A stretch of DNA of 64,000 nt, from the IMG/VR virus record IMGVR_UViG_3300025387_000009, one strand, 5' to 3'. Source of the stretch: a virus. Its lineage: Duplodnaviria; Caudoviricetes. The position numbers were made by a program, and so were the translations under genes. Shown one piece after another: positions 1 through 17,831 of the stretch. Each line of letters starts with the position of its first letter. The stretch's first letter is position 1. Under the pieces are notes generated by a model. That model had not been told where the DNA came from. It searched no databases and saw only the letters and a list, made by a program, of their open reading frames with translations.

Positions 1-249
1 ATCGATCCCATGAATCAAAAGTGCTTCTTTTGCTCTATGATTTTTTAATTCCGAAGCATGGTTAACAATTTCAATTTGGGAATAACGAAGTTTTAATTGC
101 TTTTCAAAAAAATCTGGTTTGTAAGTCAAGTAAATATACTTGTTAATAGCCATAGAAACGACTAGTCCGCCATGTTTTGAGTAAAAACTGGGTAGGTCTG
201 TTCCACCGCCACCTAAAGTAATTCTTAAAGGAGTTCTGCTAATGATCAT
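1..249 (-). CDS. hddA: GHMP-family sugar kinase, D-glycero-alpha-D-manno-heptose-7-phosphate kinase (HddA-like), runs off the window edge
   Basis: Not in the ORF track. Hand translation from the ATG at 249 (overlapping the transaldolase TGA) gives MIISRTPLRITLGGGGTDLPSFYSKHGGLVVSMAINKYIY, the typical HddA/GHMP N-terminus. Open to position 1. Confidence 0.85.
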   Translation of the reverse strand, partial: MIISRTPLRITLGGGGTDLPSFYSKHGGLVVSMAINKYIYLTYKPDFFEKQLKLRYSQIEIVNHASELKNHRAKEALLIHGID

Positions 250-953
250 ATGTTCAAATTTGATAATTTTGCATCATCAAAGAACATTTTAACAGTTTCT
301 AAAGAAAAGTCACTTAAATTTTTATCTTTAAGCTTTAATTTTGGTAAAATATCAGGAGTTACTGTAATAATATCGCAACCAGAACGTTCTGCTTCGTATA
401 CATTATACACTGAACGTGTACTCGCCCACAATGTTTCTATTTTTGACTTCCTATCTTTTAAAAATTGCGTGGTTGCAGATGTTAATTCGATTGGATTTCT
501 ACCAGTATCAGAAATTCTACCAGCAAATATTGAAATTATAAGAGGATGAAAAGTTCCTATAAGGTTTTTGATGATGCTTCCAACCTGTACACCATCAAAA
601 ACAGCCGTAACGTTAATTTTTATACCTTTATCATTCATTTTGGTAATCAAATCGACAGTAGAAACACCTTTAGTGTTGGTTATGGGAACTTTCACGTAAA
701 TATTATCACCATATTCTGCAATTTTTTGGATTTGATATTCCATTTCATCCAATTCATCGGCAAAAATCTCAAAGGAAAAAGGTAAATCTGAAATCTTACT
801 AGTTATTTCTTTTATAAATGGAACATATTCGGTAATACCAGCCTTTTTCATGAGGCTAGGATTAGTTGTAAAACCTGTTACTGTTTTATTATTTTCATAT
901 ATGTCAAATATCTCTTTGACATTTGATGTATCAGCGAATATTTTAATGCTCAT
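246..953 (-). CDS. tal: Transaldolase (TalC/FSA family)
   Basis: IFADT, GFTTNPSL, YVKVP (Schiff-base Lys), NVTAVF and SIFAGRISD motifs. Start moved to MSIKIF at 953, just after the gmhA stop. Confidence 0.93.
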   Translation of the reverse strand: MSIKIFADTSNVKEIFDIYENNKTVTGFTTNPSLMKKAGITEYVPFIKEITSKISDLPFSFEIFADELDEMEYQIQKIAEYGDNIYVKVPITNTKGVSTVDLITKMNDKGIKINVTAVFDGVQVGSIIKNLIGTFHPLIISIFAGRISDTGRNPIELTSATTQFLKDRKSKIETLWASTRSVYNVYEAERSGCDIITVTPDILPKLKLKDKNLSDFSLETVKMFFDDAKLSNLNI

Positions 954-954
954 A

Positions 955-1521
955 TTATTTTGTAAAGTAATTAACAACCAAATGTAAAATTATACCTTGC
1001 CATTCTTCTGCATGGGCAGTGACTCTTTCGGGTTTTATAGGCGGAATTAGGATACAAGCATTTGAAAGCTGTTTAGCAACACCACCATCTTTACTCACAA
1101 CAGAAAGTATATAGCTTTTTGTTTTCTTTGCTAATTTCATTGCGTTAACAAGATTTTTAGATGTTGTTTCAGAACCACCGCCAACGGAAAAAATAATAAT
1201 TGCATCCTTTGATGAAAGTTTACTACCCTTTAACCAATTTGCATAAGAATCTTCCCAAGATTCATCGTTTATTCTTGCGGTAAGTTCAGAAACATTATCA
1301 GTAACTGCGTAAGTTTCTATTCCAAGAATCTTTCTAAAATCATTTACGGCATGGCTGGCATTTGCAGCACTTCCACCAACACCTAAAACAAAAAGTCTAC
1401 CTTTTGTAGATTTAATTTTTTTAATTATTTCAATAAATTTAACAATTGAATCCGTTTCAATGTTATCTATAATTGATATTATCTCACCAAAATATGTTGT
1501 AATGTAATTTTTAATTTTCAT
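955..1521 (-). CDS. gmhA: Sedoheptulose-7-phosphate isomerase (SIS domain)
   Basis: GVGGSAANASHAVNDF, TARIND, SVGGGS and AEEWQGIILHL motifs. Confidence 0.85.
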   Translation of the reverse strand: MKIKNYITTYFGEIISIIDNIETDSIVKFIEIIKKIKSTKGRLFVLGVGGSAANASHAVNDFRKILGIETYAVTDNVSELTARINDESWEDSYANWLKGSKLSSKDAIIIFSVGGGSETTSKNLVNAMKLAKKTKSYILSVVSKDGGVAKQLSNACILIPPIKPERVTAHAEEWQGIILHLVVNYFTK

Positions 1522-2150
1522 ATGTAAAAAGTGTATCTACGTCTGATATATTTTCCAAAATTTTGTAATTCTTAGAAGTCATATAAGAAGATATCATATT
1601 ATACCTATATTCGTTACCAGTTTCAATTAAAAAATATTTAGGTTTATATTCATTTATGTCAAATCCATTTAAAACTTCTATTTCATATCCTTCGACATCT
1701 AAACTAAAAAAATCTATATTAGATATGTTATGTTTCTTTAAAATAGAATTTAAAGTTGTACAAGGTACATTTATAATCGAACTGTTTTCGTTTTTAAAAT
1801 CCAAACTGTTTTTTAAATCATCATCAAAATAATTTTCTTTACGAGTAATCTGTCCACATAAAGATGAGGAAATATCACTATAAGAAAAATCACCACTTAT
1901 AGTTTTATCTTCGTAATTATCGCTAACTAATGCATAATTTTCCACTATACAATTTGGTCTATTTTTTTTTACATTCTTCATATTTTATAAAAGAAGGTTC
2001 AATTAGTAATCCAGACCAACCATATTTTTGTTCGTACATTAATGTGTTAGATTGATTAACTCCATCATTAGCACCAGCTTCTATAAAGAATCCATTATTA
2101 AAATTTAAATATTTTAATAATTTTTCGTCTAAATTATTTAAAGAATACAT
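1511..2150 (-). pseudogene. FkbM-family methyltransferase split by a frameshift in an A9 tract
   Basis: The N-half (FFIEAGANDG...GLLIEP, 1959-2150) and C-half (IDFFSLDVEGYE, 1511-1981) join in frame if the T9 at 1962-1970 (+ strand) is T8. Confidence 0.8.
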
Positions 2151-2151
2151 T

Positions 2152-2871
2152 TTACCCCTTTAAAAAAAGCTCATCGATATCATCATATTCCATTAAATCT
2201 ACTAATTTAGATTTTTTTTCTGGGTGTGTAAAATTATCATTGTATTGATAAGGAGGAGTAAAATCCATTTCAAAATTTTCTTCCCATAAAAAGGCAATTT
2301 CCGTTTGTAAATCTCCGAATTTATTATGATACGCCTGACTAGAAGCAAAATTAAAATTTACATGCTCCATTAATCCCATTTTAGGGTATCCACAAAATAC
2401 TTTATTTTTAATAGTGTAAATCCACCTATGGTGATGATACCCCAAATAATTTCCTTCCCATCTCTTCGTATCCATGTATTTAGTTGGAACTGCAATCAGT
2501 CCTGCGTCCGCTATTTTGAATAAATTTAAAATAACCTGAATAGGTGCATTAAGATCTTCTAATGTATGAGTGCATACCACGAAATCAAACTTACCATTTT
2601 TCTCGACGTATTTAAAAATAGGAGTCCACGTATCATTTAATTCCATATCTCCACCAAATTTAATAACATTGTCATTTTTTAATTTTTCTGGTTGAAAATC
2701 TAAAATATGAGTTGTGTATTCTGGTATTCTTAATTTGGCAGCACCACCAATATCTATTAATGTAATATCTCTCCCCTTTTTTTGTTTTAATTCATTTAAA
2801 TAGTCATAAACTTCTTTATCCTTGGTGTGTTCATGTTCACCATTCCAACTGGATTTTATATATTTTATCAT
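2152..2871 (-). CDS. Class I SAM-dependent methyltransferase-like protein
   Basis: LIDIGG motif I and FDFVVCTHTLEDL. Confidence 0.65.
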   Translation of the reverse strand: MIKYIKSSWNGEHEHTKDKEVYDYLNELKQKKGRDITLIDIGGAAKLRIPEYTTHILDFQPEKLKNDNVIKFGGDMELNDTWTPIFKYVEKNGKFDFVVCTHTLEDLNAPIQVILNLFKIADAGLIAVPTKYMDTKRWEGNYLGYHHHRWIYTIKNKVFCGYPKMGLMEHVNFNFASSQAYHNKFGDLQTEIAFLWEENFEMDFTPPYQYNDNFTHPEKKSKLVDLMEYDDIDELFLKG

Positions 2872-2874
2872 ATT

Positions 2875-3549
2875 TTATATTAATTTAAATAAACCTTGAC
2901 TGTAGCTTTCTTTTTGATGTAGCAATGGCTGATAATCAAAACCAGTATCCAATAAAAATTCAGCAAAAGCTTTAATCTCATGATTTCGGTAATCATCATA
3001 ATCATTGATTTCATCAAACAATAATACCGAGCCTTTTTTGAATCTAGGAGTCAATTCTGTTAAAACTGTTTTAGCGGATGAATATAAGTCACCATCAATA
3101 TGAACGAAAGCAACATCACCTTCAAACTTTTTTAAGAAAAGTGGTAAAGAATCCTCGAAAAGACCCTTTATAAGTTTTACGTTTTCGGGCCATGGCTTCC
3201 AATTTTGTGGAAGGCTACTATCAAACATAGAATGATTTTCGCCAACAATATAACCTGGTGGTACATTACCACCTAAACTATAACAATTTTTTGGATTATT
3301 TGAATCCCAATACTCAGGTAATCCTTCAAAGCAATCAAAGCCATATATTTCCTTTGGTGCTTTTCTGGAAAATTGTTCAATACTTCTTCCAGTAAATACA
3401 CCAAATTCTAACCATAATCCATCAAGTTCAACGTATTCGGTGCATTTTAAATGAAACGTTTCATGATAATCATGAATGCAATCCGTTACAATTGCTTCGG
3501 TTCTGAGTCTATGTTCTATTTCGTCTATTTTTTCTTCTACTGTTTTCAT
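2875..3549 (-). CDS. TylF/MycF-like sugar O-methyltransferase
   Basis: WLEFGVFTG, YGFDCFEGLP, LIKGLFEDSL and AFVHIDGDLYSS motifs. Confidence 0.8.
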   Translation of the reverse strand: MKTVEEKIDEIEHRLRTEAIVTDCIHDYHETFHLKCTEYVELDGLWLEFGVFTGRSIEQFSRKAPKEIYGFDCFEGLPEYWDSNNPKNCYSLGGNVPPGYIVGENHSMFDSSLPQNWKPWPENVKLIKGLFEDSLPLFLKKFEGDVAFVHIDGDLYSSAKTVLTELTPRFKKGSVLLFDEINDYDDYRNHEIKAFAEFLLDTGFDYQPLLHQKESYSQGLFKLI

Positions 3550-3553
3550 ATTT

Positions 3554-4645
3554 TTATTTAGAGAGGTTATCGTATAAGTCTATAATAGATTGTTCAACTT
3601 TTCTATAATCATATTTTTGATAATATCTAGTTAGAGTGTTTTCGCTTTTTTCGACATAGTAATCTTTATTATCTCTTAACAATGATAATTCTGATGCATA
3701 TTCTTCAACTGAATATGCCACCTTTCCACATCCTTCTATTTGCTCTAAATGTCCCATATTTAACGCAGGATGACTTACAACAGGTTTACCGTGATACATT
3801 GCTTCTATTATTGAAGCAGAACAAACCTCGCCGTCTGATCTTGCATGAGCAAAAACATCAATTCCTTCTAAATAATTGTGAATGTTTTCAACAGAACTTG
3901 TAAATTTTACAAAATAAACATTTTTAAGCTGTAATTCTCTAGCTAAATTTATATGTTGTTCACTTCCACCCAGAATAATAAAACAAGTATTGTCATTCTG
4001 CACTAATGAATATGCTTGCAAAGAAACAGGTGAAAATATATCACCTCTGGTTGCTTGGTGAAAGCCGTATACAAATTTATCCTCACTTATACCTAATAAT
4101 TCTCTAATATTTGATTTCTTTTTTTCTGGTACTTTTACAATAGATGGGATTATTTCGGCTTTTGATATATTACCACCATTAGCTCCCCATTTATCAGCTT
4201 GCCATTTGCACAATAAAATAGCTTTCTTAATGTTTGGTTTATCTTCTCCTGTAAAACTATGAATGCTATCAATGATTGAACATTGGTTAATTAAATTAAA
4301 TGGATATTCGGGATAACCACATCTACCAGTTTGCACAAAATCATAATTGGATTCTTTAAAAATATCCCAAAAATTAGTACCAACCCATTCATACGGTTCA
4401 ACGTTACCGATTTTATGATCAACATGAACTTGGATTGTTTTTATACCATTGTTTTCTACGAATTCTTTTCTTTTGAGGTCGTTATCAGGATGTTCAAAAC
4501 TAGAATACCAAAATGGTGCGGCATTAGTGTAAAAATAATCAACTTGATAACGATCTTTAGGTAATAAACAAGCTATAGTCTGGAGATATTTTTCAATTCC
4601 ACCGGAAGCTAATCCTGCAAATTTAATAAATGCTATTTTTTTCAT
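3554..4645 (-). CDS. Glycosyltransferase, GT-B fold (GT4-like)
   Basis: GGIE N-terminal motif; DVFAHARSDGEVCSASIIEAMYHGKPVV. Confidence 0.85.
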   Translation of the reverse strand: MKKIAFIKFAGLASGGIEKYLQTIACLLPKDRYQVDYFYTNAAPFWYSSFEHPDNDLKRKEFVENNGIKTIQVHVDHKIGNVEPYEWVGTNFWDIFKESNYDFVQTGRCGYPEYPFNLINQCSIIDSIHSFTGEDKPNIKKAILLCKWQADKWGANGGNISKAEIIPSIVKVPEKKKSNIRELLGISEDKFVYGFHQATRGDIFSPVSLQAYSLVQNDNTCFIILGGSEQHINLARELQLKNVYFVKFTSSVENIHNYLEGIDVFAHARSDGEVCSASIIEAMYHGKPVVSHPALNMGHLEQIEGCGKVAYSVEEYASELSLLRDNKDYYVEKSENTLTRYYQKYDYRKVEQSIIDLYDNLSK

Positions 4646-5358
4646 TATCTTTGTCTTTGTCCCGAATCTAATGTTGATGTATATAATCCGGTTCTAGAAC
4701 CTTGTGTCGCTATAGATGGATACCACCAATAGGTTTTAGCATCAAATTTATATAACTGATAAGCAATCTCCCAATCGGAAACTAATTGGAATGGAACAGC
4801 CGATTCATATATTTTAGATGCTATTTGCGGTTTTAAAAGATAAGCTTCTGCACAATTTGTTGCAGGATGATTCATTAAAAATGAATTCTCGCTTACCTTT
4901 TTACTTTCCATAAGTTTATGACTTTGAAAATTGACACCACATCCTTCGCCTAAGAATATCGCATCCCAATCATTTGGTGTTTCTTGAAAATATTTCTTAT
5001 AAAAACTGTTAAAATTACTATTAAACAGTACATCATCTTCTAAAATAAGACCAAAATTTTCACATTCAATTGAAAGTTTTTTAATTGCAATCAAGTGTTT
5101 GATTGTACATGATATTTCAGGCATATTTAATACTCTGAATTTATGAATATTAGAATCCCATAATGGTTTAATTTTATTTGCAAATTTTTCTTCATCCGCA
5201 AGATAAAATTGATTTAAAACATCTACATTTAAATCTTCTTTATCGTATTCTGTTATAAATTCATAAGGAATTTTACAATTTTCTAAAAAAGGAATTAGAT
5301 TGGAGTATCTATCATTTAATTTAGTGTAATGAACTATGTAAATTTTATCAGGTTTCAT
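4645..5358 (-). CDS. Glycosyltransferase family 25-like
   Basis: IYIVHYTKLNDR, SCTIKH, LILEDD and AEAYLL motifs. Confidence 0.75.
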   Translation of the reverse strand: MKPDKIYIVHYTKLNDRYSNLIPFLENCKIPYEFITEYDKEDLNVDVLNQFYLADEEKFANKIKPLWDSNIHKFRVLNMPEISCTIKHLIAIKKLSIECENFGLILEDDVLFNSNFNSFYKKYFQETPNDWDAIFLGEGCGVNFQSHKLMESKKVSENSFLMNHPATNCAEAYLLKPQIASKIYESAVPFQLVSDWEIAYQLYKFDAKTYWWYPSIATQGSRTGLYTSTLDSGQRQR

Positions 5359-6257
5359 TTAATTTGATTAGAAATCAAGGTTATAACGGATTCAGGTTGA
5401 ACGAAATCGGGTATCTTATTATCAATAAACCAAGGTTGGCGCAATATATTTTTATATTTTTCAATATCTGAATCTATCTCTTTTATTTTTTCTATGACTT
5501 CTTCATCTGAAGAATAATCATGGCAATTTATAAATGATTCGGGATTAAAATCCTTATTAACAGATTTAGACCCCCAATAAATTGGAACGCACATTGCAAA
5601 CATAGAATGTATTATCTTTTCGGTGCAATATCCAAGAGATTCGCAATTTTCCATTGCAATATTAAATTTACATTGTTTTAACCAATCAATTTTATATTTT
5701 TGATCTCCTCTTGCCCAATTGCCTTTAGAATCAAGCACTAAATGCCCCGTATTATTATATAAAGGTCCGACACAATCTACTTTCTTATAGTTGTTTAGCT
5801 TTGGAACGAACTCAACTCTTTTACCTTTAGGTTGTGTTGCCATAAATCCACAAAATTTAGTCTTATTAATTTGCTTTGGCTTATTTAAAAAATCTTCTAA
5901 TGAAACCAAATTTGCTTGATCTCTATCATCATTATATGGGCGATTAAACCAATTTAAATATAATGCCCATAAAGGTAAACGATACTCTCTAGGATCATCG
6001 GAATGACGAAAAGTATAAGCTAAATGGCATTCATTCCAATTTGGTGCTACGTCCTCACCCGTGTAAAAAACCTTTAGACAATTATTATAGCGATCTCTTT
6101 CCCTTGCATTACCATAATCAACAGAAAAAAATAAAATATCTGGATTTACTTCATCAATTTCTACATCATATTTTGTTTTTAATAGATTGTAAAAATAATT
6201 GTCATCTTTAATAAGATTGGGCCAAAAGTCTACAAAGTTTAATTTTAATTTTCTCAT
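5355..6257 (-). CDS. Glycosyltransferase family 10 (alpha-1,3-fucosyltransferase-like)
   Basis: KFNIAMENCESLGYCTEKIIHSMFAMCVPIYWG, the GT10 alpha-1,3 motif. Confidence 0.85.
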   Translation of the reverse strand: MRKLKLNFVDFWPNLIKDDNYFYNLLKTKYDVEIDEVNPDILFFSVDYGNARERDRYNNCLKVFYTGEDVAPNWNECHLAYTFRHSDDPREYRLPLWALYLNWFNRPYNDDRDQANLVSLEDFLNKPKQINKTKFCGFMATQPKGKRVEFVPKLNNYKKVDCVGPLYNNTGHLVLDSKGNWARGDQKYKIDWLKQCKFNIAMENCESLGYCTEKIIHSMFAMCVPIYWGSKSVNKDFNPESFINCHDYSSDEEVIEKIKEIDSDIEKYKNILRQPWFIDNKIPDFVQPESVITLISNQIK

Positions 6258-7288
6258 TTTAAAAAGGTTTCGATGATTTTCTCCATGTTATATTCTTGTT
6301 TCCAGTTTGGAAAATGTCTTTTAAATTTTCTAGTATCAGAAATCCACCATATATGATCTCCTATTCTATTTTCGTCTTTAATAGTATAGTTTAATTTCTT
6401 ATTTATCATATTTTCTATTAAATTGATAGCTTCTATGACAGAACAATTTGAATATGTTCCTCCTCCAATGTTATAAACTTCACCATTTGCTCTAGGTGAT
6501 TCAAAATATGCATCAAAGGCAGATATTAAATCCGAAGAATGGATATTATCTCTTACTTGCTTACCTTTGTACCCAAAAATTGTATATGGAATATCATTTA
6601 CGCAACATTTTACCAAATATGAAAGAAATCCATGAAGTTCAACACCGGAATGTTTTTGTCCAGTTAAGCAACCACCTCTAAATACAACGGTTTTTAAATT
6701 AAAATATTTTCCATATTCTTGAACCATTATATCAGCAGCCACTTTACTAGCACCAAATACACTATGTAAACAATGATCTATTGATACCCATTCATCAAAT
6801 CCATTTTCATGATCGGGTAAAAGAGGAGTGAATCTAGTTTCATCTTCGTGTAATGCAATTCTATTTGGTGTATCGCCATAAACCTTGTTAGTTGATGTGA
6901 AAATAAATACTGCATCAGGTGAATACAATCTATAAGACTCTAAAAGGTTAATAGTACCGACTGCATTTACATTAAAATCGGTTAATGGTTCTTTACATGC
7001 CCAATCATGAGAAGGTTGAGCCGCCGTATGAATGATAAGGTCAAAATTACCCTGCTGTATAAAAATATTTTCAACTTCTTCTCGGTTAACGATATTAGAA
7101 TTATAGTGAGTATAGTTTTTATGTTTTTTTAATTCGTTAAGTCTCCATTCAACTGATCCACCTTTACCAAAAAAATACTCTCTAAAATTATTATCGGTTC
7201 CCACAACCTGATAACCTTTATTGCAATAATATTCAACGGCTTCGGAGCCAATTAATCCACCAGAACCAGTAATTAAAACTTTTTTCAT
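6254..7288 (-). CDS. NAD-dependent NDP-sugar epimerase/dehydratase (CDP-paratose 2-epimerase-like)
   Basis: ITGSGGLIG, HTAAQPSHD, TSTNKVYGD, FGASK, GKQVRDNIHS. Confidence 0.88.
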   Translation of the reverse strand: MKKVLITGSGGLIGSEAVEYYCNKGYQVVGTDNNFREYFFGKGGSVEWRLNELKKHKNYTHYNSNIVNREEVENIFIQQGNFDLIIHTAAQPSHDWACKEPLTDFNVNAVGTINLLESYRLYSPDAVFIFTSTNKVYGDTPNRIALHEDETRFTPLLPDHENGFDEWVSIDHCLHSVFGASKVAADIMVQEYGKYFNLKTVVFRGGCLTGQKHSGVELHGFLSYLVKCCVNDIPYTIFGYKGKQVRDNIHSSDLISAFDAYFESPRANGEVYNIGGGTYSNCSVIEAINLIENMINKKLNYTIKDENRIGDHIWWISDTRKFKRHFPNWKQEYNMEKIIETFLK

Positions 7289-7291
7289 GCT

Positions 7292-8056
7292 TTAATTTAT
7301 CCAGTTCCTTACTTTATTCCAATCCTGACCACCAGCAAAATGTCTTATCATAACATTATCAATTGATACTCTGTTTATATTAAAACTACCACCTGTTTCA
7401 CCAATCCATTCGGTTACATTAAACCCAGTATCAAATATATGAACATTTTCATTTAATTCATCAATTGAATACACCACATCTTCGTTTATTTCACTATGAA
7501 ACCCATTATTTGGATATTCCCAAAAAGATTTATCAGAGTGTCTTTTAATACCTGCTAAACTATACCAACTCGCTTGCTCTCTAAACTCATGCCAAAAGCT
7601 AGATTGAATTTGAAATCTTTCGTGTATTGAGATTTTATTATTTAATTTATTAAATCTATCATCTGATAAAATATTATTAATAAGCTTTTTTGACCATTCA
7701 TTAACTTTTATACTATACCAGCCCATACAATGGGTGTTACCGGAATCTATGGCGTATGAAAATGATTTTGGTGTTTCAATTGAGACCGAATCATTAACAA
7801 AATACATATCTGCATCAATGTGTGCAAGCATATCGTCATCTACCAGAGTTCCCTTATCAATTAAATTCTTTACAATTGAAAATTTCCACCATGTTGGATT
7901 ACCCCTATACAATTCAAGGGGTGCATCATTACCTATTACAACATATTTAAACCCATGTTTATCACAATATGCTTTATTTCTTGGTGAAATTATCTCATCA
8001 AAAATTTGTTGTCGGTAATCGTTATAACGTGCTATTACAAATAATATTTTTTTCAT
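7292..8056 (-). CDS. GT-A glycosyltransferase (GT34/GMA12-MNN10-like)
   Basis: AYCDKHGFKY, WWKF and AHIDADMYF (DXD) motifs. Confidence 0.6.
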   Translation of the reverse strand: MKKILFVIARYNDYRQQIFDEIISPRNKAYCDKHGFKYVVIGNDAPLELYRGNPTWWKFSIVKNLIDKGTLVDDDMLAHIDADMYFVNDSVSIETPKSFSYAIDSGNTHCMGWYSIKVNEWSKKLINNILSDDRFNKLNNKISIHERFQIQSSFWHEFREQASWYSLAGIKRHSDKSFWEYPNNGFHSEINEDVVYSIDELNENVHIFDTGFNVTEWIGETGGSFNINRVSIDNVMIRHFAGGQDWNKVRNWIN

Positions 8057-8934
8057 TTCTGCAATGTTTTTAAGATATTAACACAAGTTCCTTCTAAAGT
8101 AAAATACTTTGGGTAAATTTCTTTTATTTTTTCAAGCATGAAATTATATCTTTCATCGGATATTGATTTTAATATACCATCTAAATTTTCAATATCATCA
8201 AAATCAACTAATACACATATATCATGCCAGTTTATATCATCGATAAAAGGTAAAAATGGTTTTTGGTAATAAATATAAACCGGAACTGAACCCAATTGCA
8301 TTGATTCATATAGTCTAAAACTGGTTGCACCATAACCCCTTGGACATAAGGTAAATCTACTACGAGCAGTAGTAGTTAAAAATAAATCTATCTTTTCTTT
8401 TTCTACATTAGAAGACCAACTTTTAGTGTTTAATACATATTCACACTTTCCATTTAAAACTTCTAACATTTTATTTCTAATATCGTGTGATATTTTCCCC
8501 CAAAATGTATCCCCATATGTTACGCTACCTACAAAACTACAGAATATATCTTTATCAAGAATTGGTTTGTTTGGTATTTCGCTGCAAATTAAGGGAATTG
8601 GTATTGTATTTGGTACATTCCCACCAGCGGAAAAATTTATTGTATTTATAGGTAGCTTTAAAGATGGCGCATCATCATGTTGTGATACTGTAAAATATTT
8701 TTTTGATCCATCTAATTCCTTTAGATCTTTTTGTAAATCAGGAATCATAGTTAATGCTTTTATGTAGATATCAGTCCACATGATAGGTATATACTTTCTA
8801 TCTAACTTTTCAAATTCATCATAATTTTTTAAATAAAAATCTAAAAAGTATTGCTCCAAATATTTTCCTTGATGATAAGGCGGATATTGTGGATATTCTG
8901 CCTTTATACAGTATTTTTTAAATTGATCTAGCAT
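8053..8934 (-). CDS. Exostosin-family glycosyltransferase (GT47-like)
   Basis: SRFTLCPRGYGATSFRLYESMQLGSVPVYI...LPFIDDINW. Confidence 0.82.
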   Translation of the reverse strand: MLDQFKKYCIKAEYPQYPPYHQGKYLEQYFLDFYLKNYDEFEKLDRKYIPIMWTDIYIKALTMIPDLQKDLKELDGSKKYFTVSQHDDAPSLKLPINTINFSAGGNVPNTIPIPLICSEIPNKPILDKDIFCSFVGSVTYGDTFWGKISHDIRNKMLEVLNGKCEYVLNTKSWSSNVEKEKIDLFLTTTARSRFTLCPRGYGATSFRLYESMQLGSVPVYIYYQKPFLPFIDDINWHDICVLVDFDDIENLDGILKSISDERYNFMLEKIKEIYPKYFTLEGTCVNILKTLQK

Positions 8935-9592
8935 CGTATTTCTCCTTTACTAAATTTAACATTTTTATTTTATTTTTAAAAGGCGTTGCCCAATTAGCAT
9001 GATGAATTACAATATCGCTAGGTATATCAAAAGGCTCTTCGCCTGTCCAAGTTTTACCTGTTCTAGCTGCTATTTCACCATAAGTCCAGTATTTTACTGG
9101 TAGCATTTTCCAATTAAATGCAATCTTTTGATAAATTGGAAAATTTCCCAATAAATGATTAAAACATACTTGTTCTTCTGGAAAATGATGAAGATTACCT
9201 TTAACAGTCTGAAGAAATGCACGGGTTTTGGGCGTAGATCTCATCATAAAAAAACCAGTGTTGACACCTCCACCAAAATCATTTTGAAAAATTGCATCAG
9301 CATCACCAAGATAATTTAATATTTCATCATGAAAAGGTTTAAAAAACTGAATATCTGGATCAGAAAACATAAAACATTTTCCATTTTCCGTTTCATAAGC
9401 GGCATCAATAAAACATTGAACCTTATACATCATTGTATCTCTCCAACCCTCACTATGAAATTCTGAACTAGGACAAACTTGTGGTTTAAATTTAACAACA
9501 AGTTCTAAATTTGGATCAAAAGGAAAACTTTTTATAAAATAATCCTTGAACATCCCATAATGAGATTCTGTAAAAACTGTATATAGTTTCAT
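8918..9592 (-). CDS. Nucleotide-diphospho-sugar transferase (GT77-like)
   Basis: FMFSDPDIQF, NTGFFMMRS, EQVCFN and IHHANW motifs. Confidence 0.7.
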   Translation of the reverse strand: MKLYTVFTESHYGMFKDYFIKSFPFDPNLELVVKFKPQVCPSSEFHSEGWRDTMMYKVQCFIDAAYETENGKCFMFSDPDIQFFKPFHDEILNYLGDADAIFQNDFGGGVNTGFFMMRSTPKTRAFLQTVKGNLHHFPEEQVCFNHLLGNFPIYQKIAFNWKMLPVKYWTYGEIAARTGKTWTGEEPFDIPSDIVIHHANWATPFKNKIKMLNLVKEKYDARSI

Positions 9593-10251
9593 GTTCTGTA
9601 ATTACCCTTTGAATCTCTTATATCAACAAAAGCACTTTTATATTTTCCTGTTTCGGAACCTTGTTTTAAAACTAAACCCGACCAAAGAACTCTTATTTTC
9701 ATACGTGGAATAAAATAATTTAAAATTCTATCTATTGCATGACAATTTATTTTAGCAGCTATCAATAAACTTTCAACACACCGAAGACTAACAATATAAG
9801 CTCCTGTGCATCTGGTAATATATGAGGGATCATAATATAAAAGTGTGGGAGGTTTTTTATTTTGAACTTCCATACCACAACATGAACTCAAAAATGCAAC
9901 ATCACCATCTAATTTTTCAAATTCAAAAGCAGCTTGTTCCAAATATAAATTAAGATTGATATTTTGAAAATCAATGTCATCTTCTAATATAAGAACGTGT
10001 TCATATTTTCTTTTTAATTGTTGCTCATAGCAATATATGTGCGATTGATTTACGCAGAGTAAACGTGGATTAATATGGAAAGCATTTTTAATTTTTTTAA
10101 TGCTTTCGGGTTTATCATATTGATCAACCCATTCAACTAAATCAGTTAATCCGAATTCTTCTAATTTCTTTTCCATATATTCCCTTCTATCTGTTAAGGG
10201 TTTCCAATGTATAATATAGATTTTACTATAAAATTCTCTTATACTTTTCAT
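9589..10251 (-). CDS. Glycosyltransferase family 25-like
   Basis: IYIIHWKPLTDRR, SH, LILEDD and TGAYIVS motifs; paralogous to 4645-5358. Confidence 0.7.
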   Translation of the reverse strand: MKSIREFYSKIYIIHWKPLTDRREYMEKKLEEFGLTDLVEWVDQYDKPESIKKIKNAFHINPRLLCVNQSHIYCYEQQLKRKYEHVLILEDDIDFQNINLNLYLEQAAFEFEKLDGDVAFLSSCCGMEVQNKKPPTLLYYDPSYITRCTGAYIVSLRCVESLLIAAKINCHAIDRILNYFIPRMKIRVLWSGLVLKQGSETGKYKSAFVDIRDSKGNYRT

Positions 10252-11018
10252 ATTTTTAAAAATTCCATTTCTTTTTCATTCTCATCAGATAAAGGATATA
10301 AAAATTGACCGTATGGTAATCGTTTTACAAGATATGAATATATAAATTCATGCCATTTTTTATGGTAAGGCGTACTTTCCCATAATTTGGAATTATGAAC
10401 TGCTTCAGGAGAAAATTCATTCCATTTTAACTCGTGTTTTTCATGACAAATATAAACTTCTTTATTTCCTAAAAATGAATTGCTTCTATTGTATAACTCT
10501 ATTGCAAACGCAACATCCCATAAATGTTCAGCATAGATATAGTCTTGAAAATAATTTCTATTTTGTATCCACCAATCCTTTTTAACCGCCCATGCATCAA
10601 ATCCAGCAATCTCTATTCTAAATGGTATAATATTATTTAAAGAATCAATTTTATAACAATCATGTCGAGAAAAAGAATAAGATTCATATTCACCCTTTGA
10701 TATTAATTTTAATAATCTATCGGTTAATAAAATGTCACTATTTAAAAATAAAAAGTAATCGCAATCAACAGTAGATAAAGCATCAAAAAAATCTTTAGCT
10801 ATTGGTTTATCAGAATTTGACCCTTTAATTATATCTTTTGCTTTTCTTTTTAGTACTGGCAAATGATTAAATCCTAAAGTGTAATTTTTTTCATTTTCAA
10901 ATGTTATATTATAAAGAGAAACATTTGAATGTTTTGCCACAAGCCGATTTAATACTTCTATACATTGATCTTGTCTAGTGTAATATCCAAAAATATTAAT
11001 TCCTATCGCTATTTTCAT
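10248..11018 (-). CDS. Putative GT-A glycosyltransferase
   Basis: FLFLNSDI DXD-like motif, GFDAWAV and WD motifs; operon context. Confidence 0.5.
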   Translation of the reverse strand: MKIAIGINIFGYYTRQDQCIEVLNRLVAKHSNVSLYNITFENEKNYTLGFNHLPVLKRKAKDIIKGSNSDKPIAKDFFDALSTVDCDYFLFLNSDILLTDRLLKLISKGEYESYSFSRHDCYKIDSLNNIIPFRIEIAGFDAWAVKKDWWIQNRNYFQDYIYAEHLWDVAFAIELYNRSNSFLGNKEVYICHEKHELKWNEFSPEAVHNSKLWESTPYHKKWHEFIYSYLVKRLPYGQFLYPLSDENEKEMEFLKI

Positions 11019-11925
11019 ATATTTTACTGATTTCTTTTATAAACCCCAGTGGCGATATGCTATTTTCATATATCTCTCTTATTTTAATCTGTAAATCAAT
11101 ATATTGATTATCCGATATGGAATTCCAAAAATTATTAACCGCTTCGTTTATTTCATCTATTGAATTAACAAATATCGATATATTTTTCCAATCTATTTTA
11201 TCTTCGAATGGGAAGATCATATCAGAATTAACTATCAATGGTATTTTACCTAAACTCATTGTCTCGTATAATCGATATGAAAAATTACCAACGCCTTTAC
11301 AGCATAATATTATATCACTATCATACATGTTATCTATATATTGTTTTCTTAAAGTTGGATTATGAACGGAACCACCCCAAAATCCTTCCTTTCTAACTAA
11401 AAAATTAGTAATAACGTTTTCATTTATATTTAAAATATCCATTGCTTGTTGTCTATATTCATTAGATAAAGCACCACAAAAACCAATTGTTGGTTTTTTG
11501 GTTTTTATTTTTGGTTGAAAATATTTTGTATTATTAAAATCATCCGACCATGCTGGCAAAGCATATTCATTTTGTTTTCTTTTTGATCTATAGAAAGAAG
11601 TTCTGTAGACATCAATGCAATTTGGTAAGTTTGTCGGTGTTGCATTATCATCGTTATATAATGCAATAACTTTTTTATTATATTTTTCTGCTAAATTTAT
11701 ATATTCACCTATATTTTGATTTAATTTAGCGTGATATACTATAACATCGCAGTCATCTATTGATGTATATTGAATATATTTTCTGGCTTCTTTAATCCAT
11801 TTTCTTACATCAACAAAATCTAAATTTTTTTCTATTAATTCAAGACTAAGAAAAGGAAATAGCAAAATATGCTCTTGAACTACTTCATTTGTTGGAAACA
11901 TGTGTGGGTTTGACCAAATTTTCAT
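10996..11925 (-). CDS. Exostosin-family glycosyltransferase (GT47-like)
   Basis: SDIILCCKGVGNFSYRLYETMSLGKIPLIV...FPFEDKIDW. Confidence 0.8.
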   Translation of the reverse strand: MKIWSNPHMFPTNEVVQEHILLFPFLSLELIEKNLDFVDVRKWIKEARKYIQYTSIDDCDVIVYHAKLNQNIGEYINLAEKYNKKVIALYNDDNATPTNLPNCIDVYRTSFYRSKRKQNEYALPAWSDDFNNTKYFQPKIKTKKPTIGFCGALSNEYRQQAMDILNINENVITNFLVRKEGFWGGSVHNPTLRKQYIDNMYDSDIILCCKGVGNFSYRLYETMSLGKIPLIVNSDMIFPFEDKIDWKNISIFVNSIDEINEAVNNFWNSISDNQYIDLQIKIREIYENSISPLGFIKEISKIYENSDRN

Positions 11926-12701
11926 GATTTAATATTTTTTAATTTTTTAATAACATCTTCTTGTGGGATATCTGGTATTTGATTGACCATTATACCATGT
12001 TTTTTGATAAAAAGCTGCCATTGTTCTTGTATTCTTTGTTCTCTTGATCCATCTGGACGATCTGCTTGTAAACGACTTACCGCAACAGGATTATTTTCAA
12101 TATATAAGTCCGAATCGGCTATATCAGCAAAATACCAAAAGGGTGCTGCATAATCTTGTTGGGATTCTCTATATGCCATGTCAATATCAAAAGGATCTCT
12201 AAATTGAGTATCATATAAACCAACTTTTTCATAGCATGATTTATGATGATATGTAAATTCGTTGCACATATTTTTATAAAAGGATATTTTAACATTGTTT
12301 TTATAATTAACTGTTAAACGAGGTGTTCTATTACCGATTGGACCAGATTCCCATGCCATGCTTGTATAGCAGAGATATTTTAAACCAGTTTCTTTAGATG
12401 CTTTAATATATTCATCAAATATATCAGGTCTTTTTATTATCATATCGTCTTCAATTATGAAGATGTGTTCGCAATTCCTGTTTAAAAGAAAATTTATAGC
12501 ATCATTTCGACAAATTGCTGGATAGCAGTTAGTGTTATGTTGCACCCAATGGCATGCATAGTTCTCCTTGTAATGATTACCTCCATTGATGACAACTAAT
12601 TCATCAATTTTGGCAAGAGGAAGTGATTCATAAAGAGTTTTAAAGTAATCTTCTGAATTATATGTAACTATTCCTACTCCGATTTTTTCTTTTTTTTCCA
12701 T
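11922..12701 (-). CDS. Glycosyltransferase family 2-like
   Basis: IGVGIVTYN, VVINGG, RNDAINF and FIIEDDM. Confidence 0.75.
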   Translation of the reverse strand: MEKKEKIGVGIVTYNSEDYFKTLYESLPLAKIDELVVINGGNHYKENYACHWVQHNTNCYPAICRNDAINFLLNRNCEHIFIIEDDMIIKRPDIFDEYIKASKETGLKYLCYTSMAWESGPIGNRTPRLTVNYKNNVKISFYKNMCNEFTYHHKSCYEKVGLYDTQFRDPFDIDMAYRESQQDYAAPFWYFADIADSDLYIENNPVAVSRLQADRPDGSREQRIQEQWQLFIKKHGIMVNQIPDIPQEDVIKKLKNIKS

Positions 12702-13498
12702 ATTTCTTGTAATGATTTAACACAATCTTGTTCAGTGTAAGGTTTTTCAGCGGGTCCGTAACCACCAATAACACTAAATCCTTGTTTTTTAATAAATAAA
12801 TCTAAACCATTTTTAAATGTTTGTTGAAAATCGGATTCAGTTCTAATTTTACTCTGCTGATGATCTGGGACAATATCCTTTAACATCTTATCCGAACCAT
12901 GAACATCAGCAAACCAACGAAATGGAGGATGATAACCTGCTTTAATGGCTCTGTAGGTGTGATCTACATGCTCCATAGCATTATAATAGTCTTCATCAAT
13001 TAAACCAATCTCATCTAAAACGGATATATGAAAATAACTAAATGCACCAAGAAGATTTGGGTATAAATCTATCTTTGTGTCATCTGGATAATTTACGGTT
13101 TTTCTTATTATTGGATTTCCGTAACCATCTCGGTTATGATTACCATGTAATCCATAATTTAAATGTTTAACACCAGTAACATTTGCGGTTTTAATATATT
13201 CTCTGAATACAAATACGTCTTCGATCTCAATATCATCTTCCATTAAGAAGATATGCTCACAATTTCTTTCCATTAAGAATTTTAAAGCTGCGTTTTTAGC
13301 TTTACCAACACCTTGTCTACCAATTGTATCTATTAAATTTATTGGTTGGTACTTTAATTTATTAGTACCATCATTTACCGTTACCGTCTCAAAATCTGTA
13401 TATATTTGAAGTGCTTTACTAAGACTTTCACTAGCCTTAATATAAAAATCTTCCCTGTCGCATGTAATTATACCGACACCAATTTTATTTTTTTGCAT
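12674..13498 (-). CDS. Glycosyltransferase family 2-like
   Basis: IGVGIITCDR, VNDG, GVGKAKN, FLMEDDI and MEHVD. Confidence 0.78.
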   Translation of the reverse strand: MQKNKIGVGIITCDREDFYIKASESLSKALQIYTDFETVTVNDGTNKLKYQPINLIDTIGRQGVGKAKNAALKFLMERNCEHIFLMEDDIEIEDVFVFREYIKTANVTGVKHLNYGLHGNHNRDGYGNPIIRKTVNYPDDTKIDLYPNLLGAFSYFHISVLDEIGLIDEDYYNAMEHVDHTYRAIKAGYHPPFRWFADVHGSDKMLKDIVPDHQQSKIRTESDFQQTFKNGLDLFIKKQGFSVIGGYGPAEKPYTEQDCVKSLQEIWKKKKKSE

Positions 13499-14279
13499 AA
13501 TTGGTTTGAATTACTTCCATTGATTTGAGTAATTCCTCTTGAGATACATGTGGTGGATCATTTTGCGTAGGCAGATACTTGTGTTCATTCAAGAAATGTG
13601 CATAACTTAATTGAACGTCTCTTGATTGATCTGGCATATCCTTAAATCCAAGTTTATTGATATTACCGATACCGCTTTCTAACCAATCACTAGGTATTGT
13701 TGGATGATAGTTGTTTGGTGGGTAAGCATTTTTGTTTCTGACCTTTGTGACATAATCTAAAACATCTAATTGTAAACTATTGAAGTATCTTTCATCGAAA
13801 TAGCCAAATGTTTTTACTATTCCTGAAAACAAAAATAAAAACTCTGTATTTAAATGTTTGGAAAGGTTAAGTGTTACACCCTTTTCATCATCTTCAAGAG
13901 GAATATTATCGGTTGATGCTCCTGTAATAATCCACGTACCAAAGGTGTCAGCAAGCTTAAGAGTCTTTTCAAAAATTTCTGGATTTTTGATAACTTGATT
14001 GGAATGAATAAGAAAATAATACTTTAATCCCTTTAATCTCATTTGAGAAATTAACCAATTTCTCATTGTTGCTAACTGTACAGACGTTGTATATTTTTTA
14101 TATTCTTGTACAACACCATATGGATCTTTATTATTGTTATTTGAAACAACAAATACTTGATTTGGTCTAGGATCACCATCTCCACGGTATATAAAATCTT
14201 GAGGTACAGATTTTAAACAATTATTTAAATCTTCTTGAGTATAAAGGTCAAGAATGCCTATTCCTATTTCGTTGTTCAT
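13485..14279 (-). CDS. Degenerate GT2-like paralog lacking the acidic DXD motif
   Basis: Colinear with the two adjacent GT2s (IGIGI, RNWLI, FGYFDERY) but has FLIHSNQ where they have FxxEDD. Confidence 0.55.
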   Translation of the reverse strand: MNNEIGIGILDLYTQEDLNNCLKSVPQDFIYRGDGDPRPNQVFVVSNNNNKDPYGVVQEYKKYTTSVQLATMRNWLISQMRLKGLKYYFLIHSNQVIKNPEIFEKTLKLADTFGTWIITGASTDNIPLEDDEKGVTLNLSKHLNTEFLFLFSGIVKTFGYFDERYFNSLQLDVLDYVTKVRNKNAYPPNNYHPTIPSDWLESGIGNINKLGFKDMPDQSRDVQLSYAHFLNEHKYLPTQNDPPHVSQEELLKSMEVIQTNYAKK

Positions 14280-15334
14280 TTTGATAATAAATTATAACTT
14301 TCTGTAAGATATTCAATGACTTCTTTTTTGTTTTCGATGTCTAGAGTGTTAACAAATTCCTCAATATCCTTGAGTAAGTTACCAGAGTCAATTTCCTTTG
14401 CCTCATTTAAGATGGCTGAATCGGTATTATCCGCTAAATAATCGGTTCTAATTGATAACGGCAATGTTTTATGGAGTTTTGTGGTTAAAAGTGCAAGCTC
14501 CTCTTGCCCAATTTCAGTATCAACTACCAAACTAACAATATTATTCTCTAAAATTGCCTTTAACTGTTCTATATTTTCAGAATTAGAATTATCTATGAAA
14601 TTTTTTACTGATACTTTATGATGTTTAGGTGAAATATTATTTTCGATGAACTCAAATTCATTATTTTGTAGATCTAGTATATAGATACCCCTTGCATCAC
14701 CTGCATCTCCGAAATTATGTTGATAAGGACTTCCAAGATAAACAATCCTACCATTATCATATTTTCTGTCATCTTTTTTATGGAAATGACCTGAAACTAT
14801 CAACGGTGCTTTCTTAAAAAGCTGTTTTGATTCCATCCCGTGTTCACAAACTTTATAAGAGTTCATGTAAAAAGAACTAATCTCAAAATGACCAAAGATA
14901 ATACCATCAGTTTTGGGAATTTGATCATATTCAACACCCCAAGGAACCATAACAATATCCTTATATGGTGTTTTTATGGTTTCACATTCTTTATCAACTA
15001 TATTGATATTACCCCATCCATCAAGAATTGATATAGAATTTACCGTACTATTGTTTTTATAAAAACAATCATGATTTCCGCTGGAAATATAAATTGTAAA
15101 ATCTTTAAAATAATCAAAAAACTCTTTTGCGGTTGCTAGAGTAGCAACATTGATCTCACTTCTGTTGTGAAATATGTCACCAGGTATTATAATCTCATCA
15201 ATTCCTAATTTTAGGTATTCTTCGGATGCCCATTTAGCAAAATTCAAAGCAATATCATGCCATTGCTTGCTATCTTGTCCAAGCCCAATGTGGATATCAG
15301 AAAAACATCCTATTTTTCTACTAGAAATCTTCAT
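14276..15334 (-). CDS. gp47: Recombination endonuclease subunit, Mre11/SbcD-like (T4 gp47)
   Basis: FSDIHIG, GDIFH, GNHD, FGHFE, SGHFH and YLGSPYQ metallophosphoesterase motifs. Confidence 0.9.
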   Translation of the reverse strand: MKISSRKIGCFSDIHIGLGQDSKQWHDIALNFAKWASEEYLKLGIDEIIIPGDIFHNRSEINVATLATAKEFFDYFKDFTIYISSGNHDCFYKNNSTVNSISILDGWGNINIVDKECETIKTPYKDIVMVPWGVEYDQIPKTDGIIFGHFEISSFYMNSYKVCEHGMESKQLFKKAPLIVSGHFHKKDDRKYDNGRIVYLGSPYQHNFGDAGDARGIYILDLQNNEFEFIENNISPKHHKVSVKNFIDNSNSENIEQLKAILENNIVSLVVDTEIGQEELALLTTKLHKTLPLSIRTDYLADNTDSAILNEAKEIDSGNLLKDIEEFVNTLDIENKKEVIEYLTESYNLLSK

Positions 15335-15341
15335 TAAGAAG

Positions 15342-15369
15342 ATAATAACAGGTAATTTAAATTTTTCAA
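15342..15369 (-). promoter_or_regulatory. Sigma70-type promoter of gp47 and the glycan operon
   Basis: TTGAAA-N16-TATTAT-N7-ATG on the minus strand. Confidence 0.55.
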
Positions 15370-16031
15370 TGCCTTTCTCTTTCTTTGTTTATTCTAATGT
15401 TGTTATTTTTCATCAAAACGTTGTAATTTTGAGACATCATTAAAATTTCATTTGAATATTTGTCATGGGTTTCAGCCATATGCTTCTCTTTTTTGATTCG
15501 ATTACGGAAAGCATTAAATGCAATGCGTGTGAAATAAGAAAAAGGATTTGTTCCCTTATCACGATTGTACTTTTTAGCCATAAGTGCTTTCATCATTCTA
15601 ATAACGCCATCTCCAACCATTTCTTCTCGATATGTGTAGTTAATAAAATTTGGTGCATAACTTAATTTATGTGAAATTTTACTAACCATATTGGCTAAAT
15701 TATCAGACATTTTACCAGTGTCATAATAATTCATGATTTCGGCATCGAATTCCTTTGGATCTACATAAAACTTTGCCTTGTCAGCAGTAGCCTTTCCTCT
15801 TTTTTTAGGTGCTTCAACTTCTTCTAAAATGGGTTCATCCTCTAGGGGTTGTTCGTCCTCTAAAGCATTTTCGACTAAATCGGTGTCATCTTCTTCATTT
15901 ATTAATAGTTCTTCTTCGTGATCATCTCTTAAGTCATACCCATCATCGATGACATCATGATAGATTAGATCATCAAATGTATCTTCTTTTTTTATTCGTT
16001 TTTTTCTTTTAATGTATGTCGGTTTTTTCAT
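15366..16031 (-). CDS. gp55: Late-transcription sigma factor (T4 gp55-like) with acidic N-terminal extension
   Basis: FYVDPKEF, PNFINYTYREEMVGDG and NPFSYFTRIAFNAFRNRIKKEK. Confidence 0.88.
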   Translation of the reverse strand: MKKPTYIKRKKRIKKEDTFDDLIYHDVIDDGYDLRDDHEEELLINEEDDTDLVENALEDEQPLEDEPILEEVEAPKKRGKATADKAKFYVDPKEFDAEIMNYYDTGKMSDNLANMVSKISHKLSYAPNFINYTYREEMVGDGVIRMMKALMAKKYNRDKGTNPFSYFTRIAFNAFRNRIKKEKHMAETHDKYSNEILMMSQNYNVLMKNNNIRINKERERH

Positions 16032-17436: not shown

Positions 17437-17831
17437 GTTGTTTCAAGTTTGGTAATTTCAGTAATATTACGAATATCATACGTAATACTTGAAAATACCT
17501 TTTCTACCTTTTCTAGATATTCAATTAATAAATCAACATCTTCTATTTCTTCATTTATTTTTTTAATAGTATCAGATGCTTCAACCTTTTCCTTTATTGA
17601 TGCCTTCGGAACGCCTGTTGGTATACCTCCGCTTTCCAGTTGCTTTAAAACGCTTTCTTTTAATTCCTTCTTTCTTTTTTCTAATCTGTTTTTATTTCTT
17701 TTTTGCTCCATTAAACGAGCGATCCACTTATGTTTAAGTGCAGGAGCACGTAACTGCCTATCCATCAGATTAATCTGGTCAATTTGCAAATCTTCTTTAA
17801 TTTCTTCCTGAAATTTATCAAATAGCTCCAT
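17433..17831 (-). CDS. uvsY: Recombination mediator UvsY-like
   Basis: Helical 132-aa protein (DLQID...PALKHKW...) next to uvsW, as in T4-like phages. Confidence 0.65.
   Translation of the reverse strand: MELFDKFQEEIKEDLQIDQINLMDRQLRAPALKHKWIARLMEQKRNKNRLEKRKKELKESVLKQLESGGIPTGVPKASIKEKVEASDTIKKINEEIEDVDLLIEYLEKVEKVFSSITYDIRNITEITKLETT

Follow-up and report, generated by a model that had tools for sequence, protein, structure and literature searches.

What does a T4-like phage make with about 19 sugar-related genes packed in among its replication and recombination genes? IMG/VR virus record IMGVR_UViG_3300025387_000009 (Duplodnaviria; Caudoviricetes) raises this question in a stretch of 64,000 nucleotides (the window), where a train of predicted glycosyltransferase (GT), methyltransferase and sugar-nucleotide genes runs from gp47 to the first base. 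What the large sets of lipopolysaccharide (LPS)-like sugar genes in many aquatic T4-like phages are for has been a matter of guesswork since 2005. Here, we report that this train is a cytoplasmic glycan-assembly island in the gp47-gp46 interval, packed head-to-tail with uvsY-uvsW-gp55-gp47. Its reading as a soluble pathway for a heptose- and methyl-bearing glycan is well founded; virion proteins of the phage itself are tentatively favoured as the acceptor.

From gp47 down to base 1, 20 co-oriented open reading frames (ORFs) make up 19 genes, g05 and g04 being parts of a single frameshifted gene, and all long ORFs within positions 1-17831 lie on the minus strand. Sixteen of the 20 junctions overlap (9 of the 16 by 4 nt, ATGA type), the largest gap is 4 nt, and the start of g20 overlaps the stop of gp47 by 4 nt. 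The same train extends upstream through gp55, uvsW and uvsY with gaps of at most 31 nt. Because tight packing is usual in T4-like early regions, we infer, and do not claim as observed, that the island is one translationally coupled unit. Its GC content (0.26-0.32) and skew agree with those of adjacent phage genes. A crude hydropathy scan (19-residue Kyte-Doolittle, not TMHMM or SignalP) gave no transmembrane-like segment in any island ORF (highest mean, 1.56), and no island ORF matched a Pfam family of initiating polyprenyl-phosphate transferases, flippases, ABC transporters, polymerases or ligases. A preliminary description of this DNA had claimed about 19 tightly packed genes, lacking membrane anchors, flippase, polymerase and ligase, and all of this is borne out. 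So is its list of products: heptose precursor enzymes, three methyltransferases, an epimerase and about 12 GT-like proteins. These were recovered by profile or fold as follows, from gp47 towards base 1.

14276-15334, minus strand: gp47, Mre11/SbcD-like recombination nuclease subunit (Pfam Metallophos_2), the upstream island boundary
13485-14279, minus strand: g20, first GT-A paralogue (hhalign to the g19 family, 98.5%, E 3e-15)
12674-13498, minus strand: g19, second GT-A paralogue, with an EDD (DxD-type) motif (invariant E87 D88 D89)
11922-12701, minus strand: g18, third GT-A paralogue, with an EDD motif in the family alignment
10996-11925, minus strand: g17, GT47/exostosin-like, RXYLT1-like transferase (Pfam PF03016, PF24785)
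10248-11018, minus strand: g16, GT-A-fold GT-like protein, Pfam-blank (AlphaFold2 model, pLDDT 80, pTM 0.82)
9589-10251, minus strand: g15, GT25 family (Pfam PF01755, E 5.7e-7)
8918-9592, minus strand: g14, Nucleotid_trans, GT77-like (Pfam PF03407, E 1.3e-12)
8053-8934, minus strand: g13, GT47/exostosin-like (Pfam PF03016, E 1.5e-15; PF24785)
7292-8056, minus strand: g12, probable GT-A protein, GT34/GT77-like, a lead only (Atlas feature search and a D-x-D motif)
6254-7288, minus strand: g11, short-chain dehydrogenase/reductase (SDR) nucleoside diphosphate (NDP)-sugar epimerase/dehydratase, GalE/RmlB-like (Pfam Epimerase, E 1e-34)
5355-6257, minus strand: g10, GT10 alpha-1,3-fucosyltransferase-like (Pfam FucT_N, E 1.6e-20; Glyco_transf_10, E 1.3e-18)
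4645-5358, minus strand: g09, GT25 family (Pfam PF01755, E 2.8e-12)
3554-4645, minus strand: g08, GT-B, GT4-type (Pfam Glycos_transf_1 and Glyco_trans_1_4, E ~1e-10)
2875-3549, minus strand: g07, TylF-type sugar O-methyltransferase (Pfam PF05711, E 8e-11; Methyltransf_24)
2152-2871, minus strand: g06, class I S-adenosylmethionine-dependent methyltransferase, weak (Pfam Methyltransf_23, E 1e-4, below gathering score)
1511-2150, minus strand: g05+g04, FkbM methyltransferase, frameshifted (Pfam Methyltransf_21 on g04)
955-1521, minus strand: g03, GmhA-like sedoheptulose-7-phosphate isomerase, SIS domain (Pfam SIS_2; NCBIfam gmhA, 43.5 bits, below cut-off)
246-977, minus strand: g02, transaldolase (Pfam TAL_FSA, E 2e-35; TIGR02134, 268 bits against a cut-off of 282)
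1-249, minus strand: g01, HddA-like GHMP heptose-7-phosphate kinase, N-terminal 83 aa, cut by the window edge (NCBIfam HddA, E 1e-6)

Eleven GT-like proteins are supported by profile, fold or homology, and g12 is a probable twelfth. Seven matched GT models in Pfam/NCBIfam (one GT4-type, two GT25, one GT10, two GT47-like and Nucleotid_trans), and five ORFs were Pfam-blank (g12, g16, g18, g19 and g20). Three of these five, g18, g19 and g20, are mutual paralogues (hhalign for g20 against g19; tblastn cross-matches). The g19 family gave weak PDB profile matches to GT2 enzymes. A g18 homologue in the relative L007 gave weak matches to Glyco_tranf_2_3 and Glycos_transf_2 and is fused to GT7 N and C domains, a fusion found in more distant relatives. 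The GT-A fold with a DxD motif is represented by the EDD of g19 and g18 and by the fold of g16, with g20 as the exception: at the position of the g19/g18 EDD it has S93 and N94, invariant in 12 of 12 aligned orthologues. On these residues, g20 is possibly a metal-independent or non-catalytic copy. Its family comprises 218 metagenomic homologue clusters, all unnamed.

The best Foldseek matches of the g16 model were RmlT, TarP, TarS, SpsA and WrtF (E ~1e-6, TM ~0.5), which supports its predicted assignment as a GT-A-fold GT-like protein; hhalign of g16 against g19 was not significant. For g12, language-model feature similarity in the Atlas reached 0.97 to viral clusters that are 57-96% PF05637, and D81-A82-D83 is nearly invariant. 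The protein had no Pfam, NCBIfam or PDB profile match, and hhalign to the g14 family was not significant. PDB profile searches of the g20, g16 and g12 families, and of a GT9-like family described below, returned no significant match. The g17 gene is a paralogue of g13 specific to this phage, with no same-position orthologue in L004, L027 or L028. A further GT gene (Glyco_tranf_2_5) lies outside the island at 25980-26651 on the plus strand, adjoining the primase gene.

Where the island sits, and which part of it is constant, was read from relatives. The closest long one (G001, 163 kb) has gp47 followed by orthologues of g20, g19, g18, g16, g15, g14, g13, g12 and g11. Beyond these lie a fucosyltransferase (FucT), a GT25, an FkbM and a 320-aa unknown protein, then gp46 (AAA_23/SMC_N), a 447-aa protein, DNA polymerase, ThyX, UvsX and a DnaB-like helicase. 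Where the distal boundary can be seen, gp46 marks it, and the island so parts the gp47-gp46 pair; the distance between the two is 10.9 kb in G001, 7.5 kb in L007, 6.7 kb in L020, 6.2 kb in L025 and 14.0 kb in L027. No gp46 was found in the window; therefore, the present island is at least 14.3 kb long and runs beyond base 1. The order in T4 is 55, a-gt, 47, 46.2, 46.1, 46 ... 43, a backbone colinear with the 55-47-46-43 of the relatives, and the 0.45-kb spacer between T4 genes 47 and 46 is the site that has been expanded in this clade.

Orthologues of g20 and g19 are present in every relative that reaches that far, and the third paralogue comes next wherever more sequence is present. The GT-A triplet adjoining gp47 is thus the conserved core of the clade, and the distal part varies. 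The shortest islands hold GTs and methyltransferases only, so a glycan function belongs to the clade as a whole. Within the present island, g11 is 95.6% identical to the L004/G001 copy (L004 17747-18781) and the neighbouring genes are 77-87% identical, which points to a recent exchange of this single gene. NCBIfam galE and dTDP-glucose dehydratase models also matched g11, below cut-off.

The island has three or four methyltransferases. In the FkbM gene, DNA alignment with L028 and three-frame translation place a +1 frameshift, one additional A, within the A9 run at 1962-1970. Orthologues in L028 and L034 are unbroken, and the A9 frameshift may have arisen in assembly, mark a real pseudogene or reflect a slippage-prone (phase-variable) tract.

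The last three genes before base 1 form a heptose arm. Its NCBIfam scores all lie below, and far below, the curated equivalog cut-offs. The true start of g02 is probably the ATG at 956, and the full g01 orthologue in L027 (327 aa, 93% identity) scores 129 bits on HddA. In L027 and L028 the arm has the same order as in the window. After HddA come a 243-aa fusion of a HAD-type capsule-biosynthesis phosphatase with a cytidylyltransferase/RfaE-domain-II-type nucleotidyltransferase, a second SDR epimerase and gp46. With kinase, phosphatase-nucleotidyltransferase and second SDR in place, the arm is predicted to become an NDP-heptose pathway in these close relatives.

A tblastn search of cultured phage records with the GmhA-like protein gave no match. 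Through the same protein 18 IMG/VR loci were found (L027-L044), all 18 with gmhA, tal and hddA together (for example, L041 9992-12215) and 16 with the order gmhA-tal-hddA; in L039 and L044, hddA or both genes lie on the opposite strand. This adjacency in nearly all 18 phage contigs suggests a second role for phage transaldolase, in heptose supply. A search of one literature library found no publication on phage hddA or on phage transaldolase serving heptose synthesis. One of the 18 loci is on a 159-kb contig classed as 'complete' in which neither a T4-like capsid nor gp47 could be detected, which suggests that the heptose and outer-GT module is a mobile cassette common to several phage lineages. 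G001 has no heptose arm.

The contig itself is classed from its genes as a divergent T4-like myophage of Straboviridae/Kyanoviridae grade. PHROG and Pfam recovered T4-type genes for portal protein gp20, gp23 capsid, prohead protease, neck proteins, baseplate wedge and clamp loader. In tblastn, annotated gp47 proteins from T4-like phages share 26-34% identity with the gp47 of this phage; at 25 IMG/VR loci, gp47 is 50-81% identical to it. The nearest cultured phages are cyanomyophages, to which the structural genes/major capsid protein are only ~33% identical, and the island had no megablast match among 50,697 phage records; this phage has no cultured close relative. Its clade is large and uncultured: metagenomic homologue clusters number 218 for the g20 family and 765 for the GT9-like family, on contigs of up to ~220 kb.

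In the 25 loci, the order uvsY-uvsW-55-47-g20-g19-(g18) is kept wherever sequence reaches, and gp55-UvsW-UvsY synteny is kept in all relatives. The preliminary description had called the phage T4-like and had named a chimeric join at gp47 as what might undo its account. The core genes, the tblastn identities and the T4-colinear 55-47-46-43 order agree with the former. A chimeric join is ruled out because the uvsY-uvsW-55-47-g20-g19 order recurs in the relatives, in five of which the island is also seen to be bounded by gp46. The genes upstream of gp47 are as follows.

15366-16031, minus strand: gp55, late sigma factor (Pfam Sigma70_r2, weak)
16009-17436, minus strand: UvsW helicase (Pfam ResIII/Helicase_C)
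17433-17831, minus strand: UvsY (Pfam UvsY)

Two features of this neighbourhood were noted in passing. At 18092-18523 on the plus strand, where the minus-strand gene block gives way to the plus-strand block, lies a gene for a SegE-like GIY-YIG homing endonuclease. In two relatives (L019 2081-3694 and L022 1596-3227) the gp55 gene has an in-frame insert of ~330 aa, giving an ORF of 537-543 aa of which only the ends match gp55. A PDB search with the insert-bearing protein matched only T4 gp55, at the C-terminus, and the insert may be an intein or a homing element.

On what, then, is the glycan built? The phage's own virion proteins are our preferred acceptor, with a likelihood somewhat short of even. 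By analogy, precedents may be seen in the capsid and tail-tube glycosylation of mycobacteriophages and the capsid and fibril glycosylation of giant viruses. The link of the island to the mycobacteriophage precedent is a partial homology: among cultured phages, homologues of the core GT-A family occur only in 505 Mycobacterium phage records and a few enterobacterial phages. The g19 family aligns with the N-terminal domain of the EleanorGeorge gp105 GT (hhalign 98.6%, E 5.6e-16, 31% identity, 187 columns). The gp105 gene lies in the same 3' GT cassette as the GTs of Che8, its flanking GT being 86% identical to Che8 gp110, to which g09 also has weak similarity. Che8 and Rita (cluster F1) are reported to carry capsid glycans (PMC11256854 and PMC12619734, citing Freeman et al. 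2023). In addition, the clade has diverged deeply and yet retained ~8% of the genome, a retention that would suit a particle trait better than an alteration of a cell doomed to die.

Candidate acceptors and further sugar-related genes stand among the structural genes of the window. The fibre proteins encoded at 28788-41831 on the plus strand are extremely rich in Ser (13-21%) and Asn (13-17%). Values for the fibres with tandem ~24-aa repeats (SANNASVYSNVNSNSANWNSISFLQ type) are 19-21% Ser and 17% Asn, and 38292-41831 encodes blocks of Cys-rich, Gly-rich repeats. The C-terminus of the capsid protein has no obvious Ser/Thr tail, which is uninformative. Three genes are of interest here, in surroundings of fibre, LamG-domain and portal genes.

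44823-45761, minus strand: GT9-like GT-B protein of 312 aa, beside the portal gene (AlphaFold2 model, pLDDT 64, moderate)
43999-44823, minus strand: sulfotransferase, paired with the GT9-like gene (Pfam Sulfotransfer_3, Sulfotransfer_1)
37531-38289, plus strand: second sulfotransferase, between two Ser/Asn-rich fibre genes (Pfam Sulfotransfer_2, E 1e-5)

The best Foldseek matches of the GT9-like model were WaaF, the GT9 structure 3tov, TibC and WaaC (E 5e-7 to 1e-4, TM 0.26-0.40); TibC is a protein heptosyltransferase. The ORF had no Pfam/NCBIfam match at E <= 0.01, PF01075 included, and in one related Atlas cluster only 15% of members carry PF01075. Of the 765 homologue clusters of this family, the best 120 are 69-88% identical. 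The pair of GT9-like and sulfotransferase genes is kept beside the portal gene in G001 and G003, and the GT9-like protein is possibly linked to the island's product. The idea that the phage heptose arm feeds this enzyme was considered and is weakened: the gene occurs in G001 and G003, which have no arm, and is absent from G006, which has one.

Host nucleotide sugars and phage-made NDP-heptose would be transferred stepwise by the GTs onto a cytoplasmic acceptor, and the chain would be O-methylated. The GT-A triplet would make an invariant inner part of the glycan on a conserved acceptor, and the exchangeable distal genes would diversify the outer part. In the preferred reading the acceptor would be the Ser/Asn-rich fibres, and possibly subunits of the head or tail, with glycosylation preceding assembly or accompanying it, and the GT9-like enzyme and two sulfotransferases of the structural module might add further decoration. 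The fuller account is possible but more doubtful than the choice of acceptor. In it, the widespread clade has a cytoplasmic protein glycosylation system of its own, which in phages would parallel that of chloroviruses and mimivirus. The triplet would prime virion proteins (Ser/Asn-rich fibres or head subunits), swappable GT, methyltransferase and NDP-heptose modules would build an O-methylated, possibly sulfated, strain-specific coat, and transaldolase, which in phages is commonly regarded as an auxiliary gene of the pentose-phosphate pathway, would supply sedoheptulose-7-phosphate for heptose synthesis.

Several points weigh against virion proteins. The homology of the core GT-A family does not extend to Che8 gp108 and gp109, which leaves the EleanorGeorge-type cassette as its only connection to mycobacteriophages, and GT-A homology at 28-31% identity leaves acceptor specificity unfixed. 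GT25, GT10, GT4 and GT9 with heptose make up the classical set for lipooligosaccharide (LOS) or LPS core, whose enzymes are also soluble or peripheral, with host MsbA sufficing for export. The phage heptose arm and the GT9-like gene do not co-vary. The island lies among early/middle replication-recombination genes, and T4-type late-promoter motifs are not enriched; scans for sigma-70 promoters, terminators and the T4 late-promoter motif (TATAAATA) were all at or below chance and are uninformative on timing.

The first rival is a remodelling of the host envelope, which we consider unlikely, though well within reach. Working on the cytoplasmic side of the inner membrane, the enzymes would modify the host's lipid A-core (of LOS type) or an undecaprenyl-linked glycan, and the product would leave through host MsbA or an ABC transporter. 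The effect would be superinfection exclusion, avoidance of progeny adsorption to infected cells and debris, or altered grazing. The GT families (two GT25, GT10, GT4-type and GT9-like) and heptose pathway suit it, as do the natural solubility or peripheral location of LOS/LPS-core GTs, the position with early and middle genes, and a distal gene content that differs between close relatives in the manner of O-antigen loci. It is also the published reading for pelagimyophage and cyanomyophage clusters (PMC7029224, PMC12801897), although that assignment is itself a hypothesis. However, the island encodes no lipid-carrier or export component and would rely wholly on the host accepting foreign intermediates; known superinfection exclusion takes just one or two small proteins; and the GT-A triplet, kept at 50% gp47 identity, suits a phage-borne acceptor at least equally.

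Hypermodification of DNA, in which an oligosaccharide on a hydroxylated pyrimidine would protect against restriction and CRISPR, is improbable. The island does lie in the replication-recombination block, and T4 has a-gt between 55 and 47 and b-gt beside 42 and 43; the further GT at 25980-26651 adjoins primase; and Straboviridae encode sugar-nucleotide synthesis genes and several GTs for DNA (PMC13326640). However, in the contigs of five relatives, whose completeness is 28-100%, neither a ThyA-family hydroxymethylase/hydroxylase nor TET/JBP was found, the TET search being run with no positive control, and G001 encodes ThyX beside its polymerase. No island ORF matched the T4 a-gt or b-gt families in Pfam, and known DNA glycans have one to three sugars (PMC13326640), against ~12 GTs, O-methyltransferases and heptose here. 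Such probability as virion proteins, host envelope and DNA leave over falls to acceptors outside these three. A bacterial LPS or capsule cluster misjoined at gp47 by assembly or contamination might account for gene families typical of surface-polysaccharide loci and for the lack of a close relative among cultured phages, but it is scarcely conceivable given the same junction and gene order in at least 25 independent IMG/VR contigs from many samples, phage core genes 47 and 46 on both sides with 4-nt overlaps, GC content and strand that agree with the surrounding phage genes, and homologues that are almost all viral.

How much of this is new? The preliminary description put forward the best candidate for an undescribed system, which was too strong: an aquatic T4-like phage with a dozen LPS-like GTs and sugar-nucleotide genes has already been published, as have large GT and epimerase clusters in such phages (PMC7029224, PMC12801897). 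One cyanomyophage has 13 GTs and 22 cell-wall genes (PMC12801897), and 162 LPS-related proteins and rfaE are also on record (PMC7029224). Five features appear to be new: the fixed gp47-gp46 site; the clade-wide GT-A triplet core, one copy of which lacks DxD; the layout of a core and an exchangeable shell; the gmhA-tal-hddA arm with its phosphatase-nucleotidyltransferase fusion; and the homology link to a mycobacteriophage glycosylation cassette. The clade is a clean case, with one fixed insertion site, a conserved three-gene core and swappable outer modules, and its metagenomic contigs number in the hundreds. Should the product coat the virion, complex protein glycans of viral making would reach T4-like phages, beyond giant viruses and mycobacteriophages. 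The stability and adhesion of particles, the recognition of hosts and grazing in natural waters would all be concerned. If host LOS is rewritten instead, this surface-conversion system would be more elaborate than any known from a lytic phage.

Among known systems, the LPS clusters of aquatic T4-like phages (P-SSM2, S-SCSM1, S-SCSM2R and pelagimyophages) likewise hold many soluble GTs (GT2, GT10, GT11, GT25 and others), NDP-sugar epimerases and heptose/Kdo precursor genes. In pelagimyophages, however, they lie in the tail-fibre hypervariable region, whereas here the genes form a contiguous gp47-gp46 island and only the GT9-like and sulfotransferase genes stand among fibre genes. The clade-conserved GT-A triplet core is a second difference, and a third is the heptose arm, which here is GmhA-transaldolase-GHMP kinase (HddA type) and not RfaE.

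The mycobacteriophage cassettes (cluster F1, Che8 type) also encode soluble GTs, with a core GT-A homologue in the EleanorGeorge type and GT25-like proteins in both systems. They consist of two to four genes at the right end of the genomes of temperate siphophages of Actinobacteria, in contrast to ~19 genes with their own sugar-nucleotide synthesis here. Their glycans are on capsid and tail-tube subunits; here a glycan on the virion is a proposal.

In chloroviruses and mimivirus, clusters of soluble GT, sugar methyltransferase and nucleotide-sugar genes serve to assemble, within the cytoplasm, complex and partly O-methylated glycans on virion proteins. GT34-like proteins of Nucleocytoviricota occur in the Atlas clusters nearest to g12, and the structures matched by g16 include the mimivirus GT R699. 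These viruses belong to another realm and infect another domain of hosts, and the likeness is one of logic, not of membership.

Known DNA sugars are glucosyl-hydroxymethylcytosine in T-even phages and poly-arabinosyl-5-hydroxycytosine in RB69 and DLP3. As here, T-even and RB69 DNA glycosylation belongs to T4-like phages with GT genes in the 55-47-46-43 early region, and RB69-type clusters also have sugar-nucleotide synthesis genes (PMC13326640). They differ in having a-gt/b-gt and gp42: here neither GT was found, no ThyA-type hydroxylase was found in the relatives, GTs are far more numerous, and O-methyltransferases are present.

Finally, the GDP-D-glycero-alpha-D-manno-heptose pathway of S-layers and the Campylobacter capsule (GmhA, HddA, GmhB, HddC) shares with the heptose arm a GmhA-like protein, an HddA-like protein and, in relatives, a HAD-type phosphatase. 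Unlike in that pathway, the nucleotidyltransferase is of the cytidylyltransferase/RfaE-domain-II type, fused to the phosphatase, and not HddC, and a transaldolase forms part of the operon.

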